Source of the DNA: Nostoc sp. TH1S01 | Lineage (GTDB): Bacteria > Cyanobacteriota > Cyanobacteriia > Cyanobacteriales > Nostocaceae | DNA length: 64,000 nt | Reading direction: 5' to 3' | NCBI GenBank assembly: GCA_018993265.1 | Contig: JAGKSW010000002.1 | Location: forward strand, 20,609-84,608 | Part shown: positions 2,109-8,946 of the stretch, piece by piece | How the letters are laid out: each line of letters opens with the position of its first letter | Position numbering within the stretch: the stretch's first letter is position 1 | Notes under the pieces: generated by a model | The model's input: the letters and a program-made list of their open reading frames with translations, nothing else | Databases searched by the model: none | What the model was told of the DNA's origin: nothing | Program-made: the position numbers and the translations under genes

Positions 2109-2666
2109 AAAATTTTTTCGGATAGGAAATAATGTATTTTAGTCTGTTTATTTAACTTTGCTCAGGTTAAAATAGCCTTTTTTGGGATCTGAATGAGTAT
2201 AGCGTTAACTGTAGACCATGTTGAAATCTTTTTGGGATATAACAATCCGTTGAGGTGTTGCACACCAATTTGTTGCTTGTTTACTGTTTTCCGCCTCCAT
2301 CAGTAATTGATAAATCACATAGAATTGCTTCTAGACCAATGATTGGTTTCTATGAGTATGAGAATAATCATCATCGAGGATTAGCCATTGGATAACTTGA
2401 CATTTTAAGTAGTGCATCACAGTATGGCAATACAAGACCAAAATCAGCAACCGTTGGCGATCGCCTGATCATCTTTGGTATGCTCACAGAACCTCCAAAT
2501 TAGATCACCTCATCAGTCTGTGGCATCATAACTCAACTACCCATAATCAGTCCTAAGTAGGTTTTTAAATATCTCATAGACAGGTATTTCAAAAATTAGC
2601 AATAAATAGGTTATCGTAGTCAAAAGGCACGAACATTTGATTGCCATAATTGGTGAAAGAGGAGTT

Positions 2667-2888
2667 ATGAAAACAAAAATCTTTGGTTTAGCTGTGATTT
2701 TAAGTTTGGCGGCCGTTCTAGGAGCATGTGAAGGTGGTGGTAATACACCTAGTGCTACAACCTCACCAACCGCTACAGGTGAACCCACAGATACTGGGTC
2801 TACACCAACTACTACAGTTTCTCCCACTGCTACAGCTTCCCCCACTACTACTGCTTCTCCCACTGCAAGTCCTACTACAACACCTTAG
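2667..2888 (+). CDS. Small Thr/Ser/Pro-rich lipoprotein
   Basis: GAGGAG RBS before the ATG at 2667; signal peptide ending in lipobox LGAC; TTSPTA repeats. Confidence 0.7.
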   Translation: MKTKIFGLAVILSLAAVLGACEGGGNTPSATTSPTATGEPTDTGSTPTTTVSPTATASPTTTASPTASPTTTP

Positions 2889-3785: not shown

Positions 3786-3887
3786 CAGCATATTTTGAGT
3801 ACATGAGGTACAAGCGTAAAATCTAAAACCATGTAGAGACGTTACATGTAACGTCTCTACAGTATTTCACGAATATCGAAACTGCTG
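3786..3887. mobile_element. 102-bp MITE-like element, copy 1 (CAGCA...TGCTG ends, TA on both flanks, internal 28-bp perfect palindrome)
   Basis: Inverted copy at 28153-28254 with 3 mismatches. Palindrome GTAGAGACGTTACATGTAACGTCTCTAC at 3833-3860. Confidence 0.85.
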
Positions 3888-3957: not shown

Positions 3958-4407
3958 ATGGACATTGTATTTCTGACTAAATTATTAGCTCCCTGCTTAC
4001 CCTATTTGCTGAAATTAGGTGGGATAGCAGCAGAAAAAACCGCAGAAAAAGCCGCAGAGAATATTGCTCCCGATATCTGGGAAAAGTCCAAGAAAATTTG
4101 GTCGAAACTAGGCACAAAAGTCGAATCCGAAGAGGAATTGAAAGTAGCAGCCGAACAAGTAGCGGCAAAACCTGAAAGTTCAGCCCGTCAAGCCGTCTTT
4201 CAGGAAGAACTAGAAATTTTACTCCAAGAAAACCCAGATTTGGCTGAAGAGATTGCCAAAATATTGCAAGAAGAACAACCAACATCAGCAGAAGTCAAAA
4301 TCAATCAAACTGTTACCAATAACGAAGGACAGGTGATTGGACAAATGACTAATAGCAAGGCAATTGGCAAAATTGACGGCAATATTCAAGGCGGAGTGAA
4401 TTTTTAA
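3958..4407 (+). CDS. Bell/HeLo-like helical effector with a C-terminal putative amyloid signalling motif
   Basis: Helical domain LLAPCLPYLLKLGGIAAEK...IWEKSKKIWSKL...LQENPDLAEEIAKIL. C-terminal INQTVTNNEGQVIGQMTNSKAIGKI is shared with the N-terminus of the next gene. Confidence 0.7.
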   Translation: MDIVFLTKLLAPCLPYLLKLGGIAAEKTAEKAAENIAPDIWEKSKKIWSKLGTKVESEEELKVAAEQVAAKPESSARQAVFQEELEILLQENPDLAEEIAKILQEEQPTSAEVKINQTVTNNEGQVIGQMTNSKAIGKIDGNIQGGVNF

Positions 4408-4435
4408 TCAAAAATAAATTGAGTGCGATCGCACT

Positions 4436-6646
4436 ATGCAAAATCATTCAGATAGTGATCTAGTTTTCCCGTCTAACTCAACTAATCAGATTCAGCAGGA
4501 AATTGGCAAGAATACCGGGCAAGTGTTCGGCCAGATGATTGGTGGGATGGCCATTGGTCAACTCACGGTCTATCTTTCTCAAGTCCGAACTGAATTAGAA
4601 ATTCCTCAACCGCCTGCAAATAAACTCGGTGCAAATCCCTACCAAGGCTTGTTGGCATTTCGGGAAACAGATGGCGATCGCTTTTTTGGACGAGAGAAGC
4701 AAATTGAGCAACTATGGCAGAGATTTCGTCTTCTCCATGAACAGGAATCTGCGGTACGGGTGCTACCTATATATGGCCCATCGGGTTCAGGAAAATCATC
4801 ACTTGCACTGGCAGGTTTGATCCCCAAATTGGGAGCTAACCCCTTACCGGGACGAGATCAGGCGCGATTGGTGGTGCTTGTACCCGGAACCCACCCACTA
4901 GAATCTCTCGCTGCTATGTTGGCGCGGATTGCAACTAACGATCCCACCCCAGTTAGCAAAACGCGGGAATTTGCCCAAGAACTCACCCAACAAAACAATC
5001 ATCAAGAATATGATGGACTGCGGCGCATTGCTGATGTCTTTCCTGATATTGCTTTGTCTCCCTTAATTGTTTTAGTCGATCAGTTTGAGGAAGTTTACAC
5101 ACTTTGTAAAGATAAAGCTGAACGCGACGCTTTTGTCGGCAACTTGCTGTGTGCAGCAGCAGAACCTTCAAGACGAGTAGCTGTAATTTTGACATTGCGG
5201 AGTGACTTTTTAGGCGAAACCCAACAACACCCCCGCTTAAACAAACTCTTCTCAGAGCAAGGGTTTCTCGTGCCAATTATGCAGCCAGAAGATTTAGAAG
5301 CTGCTATTGTCAAACCAGCCGCACAAGCTAGATATCAGTTAAACAGTGCAGTTGTTCAACTCCTAGTAGAACAAACCGAAGGGCGAGAGGCTTTACCTTT
5401 ATTACAATTTGCCCTGACGCGGATTTGGGAAGGCTTGCAAAACGATGTTGATCCAGCCGAAACCCTAGAAAATATTGGTGGTGTGGGTGGCGCACTGGCT
5501 GGGGAAGCGCAACGCCTGTATGAAAATTTGAATGAGGAAGAGCAAGCGATCGCTCGACGGATTTTTCTCGCATTGGTGCAACTAGGAGAAGGCACAAAAA
5601 ACACCCGTCGGCGTGCTGCTTTATCAGAACTGATTGCTGATGAAAAAGAAGCCACAACTGTTCGGGCTATTATTAATCGTTTTGCTGCGCCTGGAGTGCG
5701 TTTCTTAGCCACCTTCTCAGATGAACAGTCTGGTGAAATGATTGAAGTTGCCCACGAAGCAATGATTCGTAATTGGGGACAACTGCAAGAATGGTTAACT
5801 GAATGCCAAGAAAACCTTCGCAAAAAACGCAAAATTGAGCAAGCGGCGGAAGAATGGTTAGATAAAGGTAAATCCCAAGAATATGTTCTTCAAGGTCGTT
5901 CTCTGCGCGATGCGAGAGAGTTTATGCAAGCCCAAAAAGATTATCGGGAAACCGCACTCTCAAGTTTGGCGAAGGAATTTGTTATGGCAAGTTTGCGGAA
6001 GCAGAGAGGTGATCGTTGGAAAAGCACTGGAGTTTTTATCGCTTTTCCATTAGTAGGAACACTGATAAGTTTACATTTCCTAGTTATTAATATAGCGCAA
6101 GAGATACTGAATAGTGAAAAGTGTGAGCCTAATTCTGAAATTCAATCGATGCTTCAGTATATGTGGTTGACAGGTTATAAGGATAAATTGAAAAAAGTAA
6201 ATCTCTGTCAAGAGATACTTAATGGAATTAACCTTCAGAACGCTGATCTTGAAGGCGCAAATTTTCGGGGAGCAAAACTTCAAAACTCTAAATTTCAAGG
6301 AGCAAATCTTTCAGATGCTAACTTTTTTGAAGCCAAGCTCATATATACTCAGTTACAAGGACACACTAATCTTGAAGGTGCTAATATGGAGGACGCAATC
6401 TTAGATGGTGCTAAACTTCAAGATGCTATCCTAAAACATACTATTTTCAAAGGAGCTTCTCTTAAGAATACAAATTTTTCTGGCGCGTATCTAGAGAAGG
6501 TTAATTTTCAAGGTGCTATCCTGACGAATGCCGATCTCCAATACTCTAAAGGACTTACAGAAGAACAGATAGCAAACGCAAAACTTTGTCATACAAAGCT
6601 ACCTAAAAATATTAAAAATATAAATATTAATAGGGATTGTTCATAA
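4436..6646 (+). CDS. nSTAND1-type NLR-like P-loop NTPase with TM helix and C-terminal pentapeptide repeats
   Basis: NPYQGLLAF, Walker A GPSGSGKSS, Walker B LVDQFEE, LTLRSDF, LPLLQFALTRIW, VAHEAMIRNW; hydrophobic segment VFIAFPLVGTLISLHFLVI; A(D/N)L/FxGA pentapeptides. Confidence 0.9.
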   Translation: MQNHSDSDLVFPSNSTNQIQQEIGKNTGQVFGQMIGGMAIGQLTVYLSQVRTELEIPQPPANKLGANPYQGLLAFRETDGDRFFGREKQIEQLWQRFRLLHEQESAVRVLPIYGPSGSGKSSLALAGLIPKLGANPLPGRDQARLVVLVPGTHPLESLAAMLARIATNDPTPVSKTREFAQELTQQNNHQEYDGLRRIADVFPDIALSPLIVLVDQFEEVYTLCKDKAERDAFVGNLLCAAAEPSRRVAVILTLRSDFLGETQQHPRLNKLFSEQGFLVPIMQPEDLEAAIVKPAAQARYQLNSAVVQLLVEQTEGREALPLLQFALTRIWEGLQNDVDPAETLENIGGVGGALAGEAQRLYENLNEEEQAIARRIFLALVQLGEGTKNTRRRAALSELIADEKEATTVRAIINRFAAPGVRFLATFSDEQSGEMIEVAHEAMIRNWGQLQEWLTECQENLRKKRKIEQAAEEWLDKGKSQEYVLQGRSLRDAREFMQAQKDYRETALSSLAKEFVMASLRKQRGDRWKSTGVFIAFPLVGTLISLHFLVINIAQEILNSEKCEPNSEIQSMLQYMWLTGYKDKLKKVNLCQEILNGINLQNADLEGANFRGAKLQNSKFQGANLSDANFFEAKLIYTQLQGHTNLEGANMEDAILDGAKLQDAILKHTIFKGASLKNTNFSGAYLEKVNFQGAILTNADLQYSKGLTEEQIANAKLCHTKLPKNIKNININRDCS

Positions 6647-6744: not shown

Positions 6745-8946
6745 TTAAACGCATTTATGCTTACAACAAGCATCTAGGTCATCAAACATTTTTTCCGGAC
6801 ATTCTTTCCGATAGTATCTAGTTCTATTATTATTATCCGTAGACATAAATATAGTACCATTACCATTATCACACTTCACTTGGTCACTTTGCACAACAAA
6901 AATCTGATCATTCTCCAAATTATTTTTATTAGCATCATCAAAAATACTAATATCAGAAACGCATTCTGACAAAGCCTTGATAGCTGCATCTCTAACAGCA
7001 TCATCATTACTCTGCAAAGCTTCAGTTAAAACTTGAATTGCAGTTTCTTGATATTTACCAAATTTGATTAATCCTTGGGCTACAGAGATGTGTTTAGTAT
7101 CTATTTTAGAAACATCCAATATTTTTTGCACTTCTATTACTTGACCTCTGATGTTTTTTGCTTCTGTCTTCCAGCAATCTTCTAAAGATTTTCGCAGAGA
7201 AGAAGTTAATTTTGCTTTCACTGAACGAGGTACAAAATTGATTTCACTAATTCTTATTTCAACATCTTCAATTTCATTATTTTTAATTGCTCTTTCTAGA
7301 ACCTGCTCAATTTCCCATAATATTTCATCTAGTTTTGCTTTGAGTTTAGGAAAATCCGATGACATTGTTCTGCTCCTTGTGATTGTGGGAATATTTTGCA
7401 ATTTGTCTGTTTCTGAATTCGGAAGATTGACTATCGGTAATGCTGCGTCATACAAGCTCATCTTTAGGACTGTATTTTTCACTGCTTCTATGGCAGCATC
7501 AGCATCAGCTAATCCATAACCTGTGGCTAAGTCTGGGCCTGCACGTGCCCGATACCCTCCCGTTCTTGGATTACCAGCACCTTCCACAACATCGCGGGCT
7601 GTTTGTTGTAGAATTTCCTTGACTTTTGCGGGTGGTAATCCTGAATCAAGCTGTTTCATCAAGGCGCAAACACCAGCTAATTGCGGTGCTGCGGCTGAAG
7701 TACCACTAAATGCAGCCCAGCCATCACTAGATTTAGTACCATCACCAAAGAAAGAACGCACCTGATCTTTCTCGCTACCAGGAGGAACAGGCAACATAAT
7801 ATAAGCACCATAGGGAAGCTTACCAACCAACCCACATACATCGGGAACCCTGCGCCCTGGATAAATTGGACTGGTAAAACTGCTGGCGTAATTGCTTGCT
7901 TCTAACTTGCCTTGCAACAGTCCATCTAGATGCAAATACACACCTCCTGCTGCAATCACATCTGGGTGCTGAGATGGAAAGCTCCATTGACCATTTCCCG
8001 CTGCAAAAATGACGATAATTCCACGACGCACGGCATCGGCAATGGCTACAGCTAAAGCTTGATTAAAGGGAGAAAATTGGCGATTTTTTAAATCACAGCC
8101 CCAACTGCAAGTAATAATATCTGGTCTTAGGGCAACAGCTTTTTTAAAAGCAGCAACGGCGTTGACGTTCTTGAATTTGCCTGGGGCTGTGAAAACATCA
8201 GCTTTAACCATCGTTAACTCAACATCAGGAGCCACCGCCAGCAAATTGGCAGATTCCCCAGTTCCATGACCATTCTCGTCTTCCAAAGGAGCCGATGCAC
8301 CGGGCGCAAGAACGACATTGACTTTGTAGTTATACCTGCTGAAAAATGGATGACGATACCACCCGGTATCAAGCATGACTACCTTGACACCTCTACCTGT
8401 GATGCCGTTTTGATGAGCTAAAGTGGCATTTAATCCTTGAGCGATGTCTTCTGGTACACGCAAATATTTTGTAGTTGTTTCTGGTGGCAACTCCGTAGGA
8501 ATTGGGGGTCGAAAGTAAAAAGCTGGTTCATTGAGCGCAATTCCGTCTAATAGATGATCCCAACTGGTTTGTGATGTATCAATTTCACCAAAGGGCTTAT
8601 TATCGATCGCATTGATAAATGTCGCTGTTGTTTCCCCAACTATCTCTTTAATAACAGGAATCTCAACTGTCTCTAGAGTTGTTTGGAGCGATCGCTCATA
8701 AACCTCGGCATCGGCAGCTATACTGATTGATGTCTTACCCACATCCAAAATCTCAAATCCTGCTGCCTGTAAGCGTTGCACTGCTGAATTGAGTAAGTTT
8801 GGTTCCGCATAAAATTGAGCCACATTCTCACTTGTGACACTGCTCGCAGAATGTAACAACGATTCCCCACTGACTGAACGAACAATCGCTTCAGCGTATA
8901 TTTTTGACGGTAATTTTGCCTGTTGTTCCTTACTCATTACATACAC
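6745..8946 (-). CDS. S8 subtilisin-like serine protease with a C-terminal HEAT-like/Cys-rich extension
   Basis: Catalytic triad motifs MLDTG, NGHGT and FSGTSAAAP. Confidence 0.9.
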   Translation of the reverse strand: MYVMSKEQQAKLPSKIYAEAIVRSVSGESLLHSASSVTSENVAQFYAEPNLLNSAVQRLQAAGFEILDVGKTSISIAADAEVYERSLQTTLETVEIPVIKEIVGETTATFINAIDNKPFGEIDTSQTSWDHLLDGIALNEPAFYFRPPIPTELPPETTTKYLRVPEDIAQGLNATLAHQNGITGRGVKVVMLDTGWYRHPFFSRYNYKVNVVLAPGASAPLEDENGHGTGESANLLAVAPDVELTMVKADVFTAPGKFKNVNAVAAFKKAVALRPDIITCSWGCDLKNRQFSPFNQALAVAIADAVRRGIIVIFAAGNGQWSFPSQHPDVIAAGGVYLHLDGLLQGKLEASNYASSFTSPIYPGRRVPDVCGLVGKLPYGAYIMLPVPPGSEKDQVRSFFGDGTKSSDGWAAFSGTSAAAPQLAGVCALMKQLDSGLPPAKVKEILQQTARDVVEGAGNPRTGGYRARAGPDLATGYGLADADAAIEAVKNTVLKMSLYDAALPIVNLPNSETDKLQNIPTITRSRTMSSDFPKLKAKLDEILWEIEQVLERAIKNNEIEDVEIRISEINFVPRSVKAKLTSSLRKSLEDCWKTEAKNIRGQVIEVQKILDVSKIDTKHISVAQGLIKFGKYQETAIQVLTEALQSNDDAVRDAAIKALSECVSDISIFDDANKNNLENDQIFVVQSDQVKCDNGNGTIFMSTDNNNRTRYYRKECPEKMFDDLDACCKHKCV

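Follow-up and report, generated by a model that had tools for sequence, protein, structure and literature searches.

Layout of the locus

The window analysed here, a 64,000-nucleotide (nt) stretch of the genome of Nostoc sp. TH1S01, contains two adjacent plus-strand genes encoding a small protein of 149 amino acids (aa) and a nucleoside triphosphatase (NTPase) of 736 aa, with a subtilase gene convergent to them. The C-terminal tail of the small protein and the N-terminus of the NTPase carry copies of one short motif, and it is close to certain that the two proteins are coupled through it. The locus is read, with moderate confidence, as an amyloid switch of the type formed by Bell proteins and bacterial amyloid signalling sequences (BASS), as part of a cell-death or immunity module that comprises three genes in filamentous cyanobacteria. 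Its features are listed below, with the evidence for each in brackets. These include open reading frames (ORFs), AlphaFold2 (AF2) models with their predicted local distance difference test (pLDDT) scores, and hidden Markov models (HMMs).

3958..4407, plus strand: Bell-type effector gene, 149 aa (ORF)
3958..4272, plus strand: helical Bell-like domain, aa 1-105, with D at position 2 (AF2, Kyte-Doolittle hydropathy)
4300..4404, plus strand: effector G/Q/N-rich motif, aa 115-149, INQTVTNNEGQVIGQMTNSKAIGKIDGNIQGGVNF (pLDDT <50, family conservation, 72 bits against the motif HMM)
4408..4435, no strand: intergenic spacer, 28 nt (sequence, scan)
4436..6646, plus strand: nSTAND1 NTPase gene, 736 aa, with transmembrane (TM) helix and pentapeptide repeats (Pfam)
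4490..4564, plus strand: NTPase copy of the motif, aa 19-43 (30-45 bits against the motif HMMs)
4637..5878, plus strand: nSTAND1 NTPase module, aa 68-481 (Pfam)
6026..6100, plus strand: predicted TM helix, aa 531-555 (hydropathy, conservation)
6101..6643, plus strand: C-terminal domain, aa 556-736, pentapeptide beta-helix (Pfam, AF2)
6745..8946, minus strand: S8 subtilase with HEAT repeats, 733 aa, convergent (Pfam)

Half of the spacer between the Bell and NTPase genes is a HIP1-type palindrome, AGTGCGATCGCACT, at 4422-4435. The core GCGATCGC likewise lies within the Bell-NTPase spacer of a related locus, L003. Because a scan of the 28-nt spacer revealed no convincing terminator, the two genes are probably co-transcribed.

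The match between effector tail and NTPase N-terminus

Residues 115-139 of the effector (INQTVTNNEGQVIGQMTNSKAIGKI, nt 4300-4374) align without gaps to residues 19-43 of the NTPase (IQQEIGKNTGQVFGQMIGGMAIGQL, nt 4490-4564), with 12 of 25 positions identical. This match, together with the ORFs and their positions, had been reported in a preliminary description of the same DNA and was reproduced when the alignment was recomputed. In 200,000 shuffles that preserved the composition of the motif, the mean was 2.6 identities and the maximum 11; neither the observed 12 identities nor the observed BLOSUM62 score of 60 was ever attained. When the last 50 aa of the effector are compared with the first 70 aa of the NTPase, the best local alignment without gaps scores 67, against 23.8 +/- 4.5 (maximum 46) in 1000 shuffled comparisons.

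The DNA of the two copies is identical at 43 of 75 nt, with a longest common run of 9 nt, and the same codon is used at just 3 of the 12 identical residues, one of which is Met. A recent DNA duplication as source of the motif was rejected on this codon usage. The nucleotide identity and the few codons in common therefore place the conservation at the protein level, with selection acting on the peptide, as the preliminary description had argued from the differing codons.

The small protein as a Bell effector

The small protein has 138 homologues in the databases, nearly all of ~145 aa and from cyanobacteria. Their consensus begins MD[IV]xxLTxLLxPxLPFLxKxG and ends in the tail QINQTVTNNEGQVIGQMTGGKAIGRIDGNIQGGVNL. 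The window protein itself starts MDIVFLTKLLAPCLPYLLKL, with D at position 2, and a D or E at position 2 or 3 is present in 106 of 120 close homologues and 82 of 104 representatives. An AF2 model based on 43 sequences predicts helices at residues 3-20, 26-35, 38-57, 59-70, 75-91 and 93-104 (pLDDT 80-89), followed by a tail with pLDDT <50 from aa 106. Helix 1 (aa 3-20) is hydrophobic, with a mean Kyte-Doolittle value of 1.63. These hallmarks are the ones given by Dyrka et al. for Bell proteins, which are short (~120-140 aa) and start with an alpha-helical domain of ~100 aa (10.1101/2020.01.06.895854).

A profile of the small protein searched against 1.84 billion representative proteins recovered 1866 representative relatives at E<=1e-3. 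Many of these align over the helical domain only and have other tails attached. Among relatives at E<=1e-22, P0196 ends in a BASS6-like tail (VTASGERSVAVGGDVTGSTIVTGD), P0153 in a BASS9/10-like tail (NIEMNGESYDQSSFKQVGKIQADKV) and P0224 in a BASS1-like tail (QIGQARDITV); ASGERSVAVGG..GSTIVTGD is a BASS6-like tail found among the profile relatives. The tails were classed by their resemblance to the examples in Table S2 of the BASS1-10 catalogue, and not by accession numbers. On the strength of these relatives, with their BASS6-, BASS9/10- and BASS1-like tails, the small protein is assigned by sequence to the Bell family. The Bell-like nature proposed in the preliminary description agrees with the hallmarks and the profile relatives; the structural comparison is given with the alternatives below.

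Scans of the small protein with Pfam, NCBIfam and PADLOC gave no real match. Matches to Pfam HetE-N (PF20701) were weak, at E 0.06-0.12 in 3 of 43 sequences, and precomputed PF20701.5 matches are present for some homologues. EACC1 (Kaur 2020) was considered as the identity of the small protein and rejected.

The receptor NTPase

The Pfam nSTAND1 model (PF20703) matches aa 68-481 at E 2.9e-107 over model positions 1-378 of 379, and pentapeptide repeats match at ~aa 584-722 (E 3.8e-29). In the same scan aa 1-67 gave no match, and no NACHT, NB-ARC or EAD domain was found. There are 2954 homologues at E<=1e-10, and the Walker A (GPSGSGKSS) and Walker B (LIVLVDQFEE) motifs are invariant across 44 homologues. 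By its domain make-up the protein would be similar in its working to a NOD-like receptor (NLR) without being a member of the NACHT or NB-ARC families. Residues 1-61, which include the motif, are disordered in the AF2 model (pLDDT ~30).

A single hydrophobic segment at aa 531-555 (KD19 maximum 2.36) lies inside a long AF2 helix, 510-558, with a net charge of +4 upstream and -3 downstream. The arrangement is conserved, as all nSTAND1 partners of the motif have one strongly hydrophobic segment after the NTPase, with positive charge upstream and neutral or negative charge downstream. The pentapeptide beta-helix is modelled at pLDDT 92-97, and four cysteines located after the TM helix (C563, C591, C718 and C735) are near-invariant in receptors of the pentapeptide type. 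The N-terminus is probably inside the cell and the C-terminal sensor in the periplasm or the thylakoid lumen.

The nSTAND1 core, the pentapeptide repeats and the TM helix had all been named in the preliminary description, and Pfam and the hydropathy comparison agree with it. Its emphasis on unusual features was overstated, given the BASS11 partners discussed below and TM STAND proteins predicted before. Earlier predictions already include STAND proteins that have TM segments together with periplasmic sensors (10.1101/2022.07.19.500537, PMC10907252), so the receptor layout is uncommon and not unprecedented.

Conservation and co-variation of the motif

Related loci were fetched (n=33, designated by L numbers), which with the window make 34 sources and 309 kb. 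An HMM built from 117 small-protein C-termini only was searched against the 3030 six-frame ORFs of >=40 aa in the window and the 33 loci. Beyond the small proteins, every match below E 1e-3 was the N-terminus (~aa 10-65) of a neighbouring ORF on the plus strand, in most cases the one that follows directly. Among the 3030 ORFs the E-values then jump from 6.5e-4 to 0.46. The motif is present on both the effector C-terminus and the neighbour's N-terminus in 30 of the 34 sources. Among the other four, the contigs of L012 and L023 end early, the copy in L007 is degenerate and L033 is a distant relative. Conservation of the motif in adjacent homologous pairs, which had been put forward as a check on the initial proposal, is therefore found. 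Overall, the predictions of that proposal that computation could address were all borne out.

The two copies also vary together. Across 25 pairs, motif identity is 51.7% within a pair and 42.2% to other partners, a difference matched by none of 100,000 permutations. At HMM column 20 (G124 of the effector and G28 of the NTPase) 13 pairs are G/G, 12 are N/N and none is mixed. Partners of the nSTAND1 type and of the iSTAND type each include both states, and the motif variant therefore tracks the pair and not the domain family of the partner. Such pairwise co-variation is expected if coupling requires matching sequences, and the strict G/G versus N/N pattern provides a ready-made test of specificity.

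One related locus, L003 (5318-5600), is decayed. Its Bell gene is intact and its subtilase truncated, and the NTPase is cut to the motif-coding 5' end, followed by a frameshift.

Motif class and composition

The effector-side motif consists of 17% G, 16.5% Q, 12% N, 11% I, 9% V and 5% K, with 0.6% L and 0% P. The NTPase side is similar, with 21% Q, 18% G, 13% I and 0.2% P, and both copies lie in segments that are disordered in the AF2 models. Disorder and a make-up rich in G, Q, N, I and V and poor in P and L fit the published description of BASS motifs (10.1101/2020.01.06.895854). Motifs of this type are ~25 aa long, with conserved G, N and Q, a hydrophobic pattern and few P, L and K.

The motif nevertheless looks like a class outside BASS1-10. 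None of the 346 pairs in Table S2 contains its core strings. With the motif HMMs, sequences exemplifying each of the ten classes reach <=7 bits, where the window copies reach 30-72 bits, and a literature search for the motif strings found nothing. The preliminary description was unable to place the motif in a named class, and for BASS1-10 this is borne out by the bit scores and Table S2. Its absence from the catalogue is explained by the underlying screen, which took NB-ARC and NACHT neighbours only (10.1101/2020.01.06.895854). The comparison covers BASS1-10, and the relation to BASS11 is the main uncertainty in the novelty of the motif. For BASS11, the text of the source gives the residues I87-G88-S89-V90 and D99-N100, and the full sequence and logo are in its figures (10.1101/2024.11.07.622273).

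Range of partners and adaptor swaps

The partners that carry the motif are as follows, with the number of each.

nSTAND1, 11: pentapeptide repeats in 7, WD40 in 1, a truncated or different C-terminus in the remainder
iSTAND, 7: ~365 aa, with genes for a MoxR-like AAA protein and a large protein downstream
CHAT, 2
Uncharacterised family, 4: ~1140 aa
NACHT-like, 1

The motif is thus tied to iSTAND-MoxR, CHAT and other partners, a link that the preliminary description had omitted. Of the 120 NTPase homologues closest to the window protein, 94 have the motif, and it is also carried by 49 of the 149 best representatives of the Bell profile search. Single-chain fusions containing it include Bell-motif-CHAT, TIR-Bell-motif, CHAT-Bell-motif and Bell-motif-nSTAND1. 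The motif thereby appears to work as a portable adaptor that joins the Bell family to several sensor cores.

In L013, L017 and L027-L032 the gene order is Bell-motif, motif-iSTAND, MoxR-like AAA_5 and large protein. The large protein has WD40 repeats in two of three loci (L013 and L028) and no Pfam match in L027. These iSTAND loci are the vWA-MoxR-iSTAND ternary systems of Kaur et al., and the Bell effector is joined to them via the same motif. The ~1140-aa proteins of L007, L016, L022 and L026 have the motif at their N-termini and are encoded directly downstream of Bell genes. No Pfam domain was found in this family, which is a candidate for a new type of sensor or core.

Two loci show the N-terminal slot of the NTPase occupied by something else. 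Limnospira indica (L034, 1782-8259) has two tandem nSTAND1-pentapeptide genes with another N-terminal motif, ITGGFNQRTWEVNGNVIQ. The Peptidase_C14 caspase encoded upstream ends in ISGGFNQPGWKVGGDVIQ, which matches ITGGFNQRTWEVNGNVIQ, and the Limnospira motif may be a further motif class coupled to a caspase instead of Bell. In L035 the NTPase N-terminus is a helical EAD, common with a neighbouring FGE-sulfatase protein. It follows from these swaps that the slot takes different adaptors, each matched to its own effector, and as natural exchanges they support the adaptor role suggested for the motif. A strand-like segment, TVYLSQV (window 4565-4585, aa 44-50), stands directly after the motif in the window NTPase. 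TVYLSQ is kept in nSTAND1 partners even where the motif is replaced, with VTVYLSAS in Limnospira, and this segment seems to belong to the NTPase and not to the adaptor.

The convergent subtilase-HEAT gene

The gene at 6745..8946 on the minus strand, a peptidase of Pfam family S8 (E 5.3e-24) with HEAT repeats, was absent from the preliminary description. Wherever the flanking sequence is long enough, a subtilase orthologue adjoins the nSTAND1-TM-pentapeptide gene: ten loci including the window (the others being L001, L004, L005, L009, L021, L034, L037, L038 and L039) and one remnant, in L003. The order in L021 is NTPase, subtilase, Bell. The subtilase is kept beside the caspase effector of L034 and also in L039, without an adjacent Bell gene.

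The Asp/His/Ser triad is invariant and the enzyme is predicted from it to be catalytically intact. Inspection by eye shows no hydrophobic signal sequence at its N-terminus, and a cytoplasmic location is proposed. The search with the tail HMM found no copy of the motif in the subtilase. Possible roles are processing, amplification or that of a second effector.

Comparison with known systems

In fungi, HET-S/NWD2 (HRAM motif) pairs a helical membrane-targeting effector bearing a C-terminal prion motif with an NLR that has the motif at its N-terminus, and the NLR oligomer templates the effector. The placement of the motif on the effector C-terminus and the N-terminus of a neighbouring NLR is the same here. 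The fungal system differs in kingdom and motif, in the two pseudo-repeats of HET-S and in its soluble NLR of NACHT-WD40 type, and homology to HeLo is not detectable in the Nostoc effector.

Bell/BASS-NLR pairs of filamentous bacteria (Dyrka et al. 2020, 10.1101/2020.01.06.895854) are like the present locus in several respects. They combine a Bell protein of ~140 aa, in which position 2 or 3 is acidic and helix 1 hydrophobic, with a G/N/Q-rich C-terminal motif of ~25 aa that is repeated at the N-terminus encoded by a collinear STAND gene a short distance away, and they occur in multicellular cyanobacteria. The present system is unlike them in having a motif outside BASS1-10, nSTAND1, iSTAND and CHAT partners, a TM receptor with an outer pentapeptide domain, and a subtilase.

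For bacteria, experimental proof of such signalling comes from a single system, Bab/Agp of E. coli (sequences OWC60847.1 and OWC60848.1; Ibarlosa et al. 2024, 10.1101/2024.11.07.622273), in which a Bell-like protein signals via a shared amyloid motif to a partner outside NACHT/NB-ARC. It likewise consists of a small Bell-like executioner and an adjacent sensor with a common amyloid motif, BASS11, and that motif family is also tied to TIR, CHAT and NACHT proteins. Partners beyond NACHT/NB-ARC were thus already known for BASS11 (10.1101/2024.11.07.622273). The 'Babybell' domain of Bab is shorter, at ~80 aa.

The EAD-coupled nSTAND1 and iSTAND-MoxR-vWA systems (PMC7159879, PMC8195603) involve the same NTPase clades and the same logic of one adaptor on both partners, with adjacent copies being the closest, and are enriched in multicellular cyanobacteria. 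The loci here with Bell, motif-iSTAND, MoxR-like AAA and large WD40 protein resemble them further. They differ in that a globular helical EAD takes the place of the short, disordered, beta-prone motif. The searched text of these papers (term searches and one section) contains neither a Bell partner nor a subtilase beside nSTAND1-TM-pentapeptide genes.

Amyloid signalling from NLR-like sensors to pore-forming effectors is an established mechanism of fungi; in bacteria it has been so since 2024, for one antiphage system of E. coli. The BASS1-10 catalogue was built from NB-ARC/NACHT neighbours only, and a large Bell subfamily (the 49 of 149 best representative clusters noted above) uses a motif that this catalogue lacks. 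By tying the Bell family to nSTAND1, iSTAND-MoxR, CHAT and the ~1140-aa family, the motif links the 'BASS' and the 'EAD' views of conflict systems. What is new is the combination of a motif outside BASS1-10, STAND partners outside the original screen, a TM receptor and a conserved subtilase. The locus also offers a tractable candidate receptor that would sense outside the cytoplasm and kill from inside, with a conserved protease.

Proposed mechanism and alternatives

In the favoured amyloid-switch reading, the small protein would be a Bell executioner whose helical bundle hides hydrophobic helix 1 and whose ~35-aa tail is disordered. The 736-aa protein would be a membrane-anchored NLR-like receptor with an active NTPase in the cytoplasm and a Cys-stabilised beta-helix beyond the membrane. 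Ligand sensing by this outer domain would lead to NTP-dependent oligomerisation of the nSTAND1 module, clustering the N-terminal motifs so that they adopt a cross-beta (amyloid-like) fold. Such a seed may template the matching tail of the Bell protein and release helix 1, which would attack the membrane and cause cell death. The gene layout, the shared motif with its conservation and co-variation, the Bell family assignment, the conserved TM helix and the linked subtilase are observations; templating, membrane attack, topology, ligand and the part played by the subtilase belong to the proposal.

Several points weigh against this mechanism. The amyloid nature of the motif is presumed by analogy with BASS1, BASS3, BASS11 and HET-S. 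Foldseek comparison of the AF2 helical-domain model with the PDB gave a best E of 3.8 and no HeLo-, MLKL- or Bab-like match, and a profile search of PDB sequences returned noise only, with no relative of the small protein; the Bab paper reports large topological variation among Bell folds (10.1101/2024.11.07.622273). L039 has receptor and subtilase with no adjacent Bell gene, the subtilase is left without an assigned step, and no RNA runs containing the locus were found. Further, a helical, non-amyloid EAD can occupy the same slot, and homotypic binding without templating therefore explains the genomic data equally well.

The last point leads to the main rival, a non-amyloid homotypic adaptor, which is possible though distinctly less probable than the amyloid switch. 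Here a stoichiometric beta-hairpin or beta-sheet contact would tether Bell to the NTPase N-terminus, constitutively or on activation, much as EADs do in the systems of Kaur et al. and with no self-propagating cross-beta fold. The EAD of L035, common with its neighbour, speaks for this, as does the presence of the motif inside the single-chain fusions Bell-motif-CHAT and Bell-motif-nSTAND1. The greatest likeness between adjacent copies is a stated property of EADs (PMC7159879), and the same is seen in the co-variation here. On the other side, the length, disorder and G/Q/N/I/V-rich, P/L-poor make-up are those of BASS and not of a globular EAD, and all BASS motifs assayed so far (BASS1, BASS3 and BASS11) formed fibrils (10.1101/2020.01.06.895854, 10.1101/2024.11.07.622273).

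The subtilase raises two other explanations. The small protein could be a regulator, inhibitor or chaperone docked by the motif, with the subtilase or another factor as the real effector, given that the nSTAND1-TM-pentapeptide core invariably has the subtilase beside it while the motif partner varies between Bell, caspase and none. This is improbable: the small protein has the MD and hydrophobic-helix signature and the helical bundle of pore formers of the Bell/HeLo type, and the same Bell family is tied to iSTAND-MoxR, CHAT and NACHT-like cores that lack this subtilase, which fits a portable effector. Equally, a protease gene that always adjoins the nSTAND1-pentapeptide type might suggest that the motif is no interaction module and serves for recognition or processing, for instance as a degron or as a cleavage site of the subtilase. 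However, the subtilase is retained in Limnospira where the motif is swapped for an unrelated one, iSTAND and CHAT loci contain the motif and lack this subtilase, and cleavage at a common site would not lead one to expect G/G and N/N states specific to each pair, making this explanation very improbable. A chance similarity of two low-complexity G/Q-rich segments, which their biased composition might suggest, is refuted by the shuffles, the conservation in 30 of 34 sources and the pairwise co-variation, and its probability is negligible.

The amyloid-switch reading can be extended to a trans-envelope NLR that joins an extracytoplasmic sensor, nSTAND1 oligomerisation, a prion-like Bell switch, an obligatory third step by the subtilase and a new motif class. 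As a joint claim this is rather doubtful. The beta-helix, held by two disulfides, would lie in the periplasm that is continuous along the filament, or in the thylakoid lumen, and would meet an extracytoplasmic danger or a signal derived from a neighbouring cell. The subtilase would then act in processing or amplification. If true, the motif would represent a new amyloid class, 'BASS12', serving as a universal plug that connects one effector family to at least five sensor cores.

Further features of the locus

A search for phage carriage gave zero phage matches, and the search for plasmid carriage gave a single match, to an Acaryochloris plasmid at 43% identity. About 100 nt upstream of the Bell gene, at window positions 3832-3861, lies a perfect 30-bp palindrome, TGTAGAGACGTTACATGTAACGTCTCTACA, which may terminate transcription coming from upstream or be one of the repeat elements of cyanobacteria. 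Further upstream, an 83-aa ORF (window 2637-2888, plus strand) has a lipoprotein-like start and a low-complexity tail rich in Pro, Thr and Ser (TTSPTATGEPTDTGSTPTTTVSPTATASPTTT).

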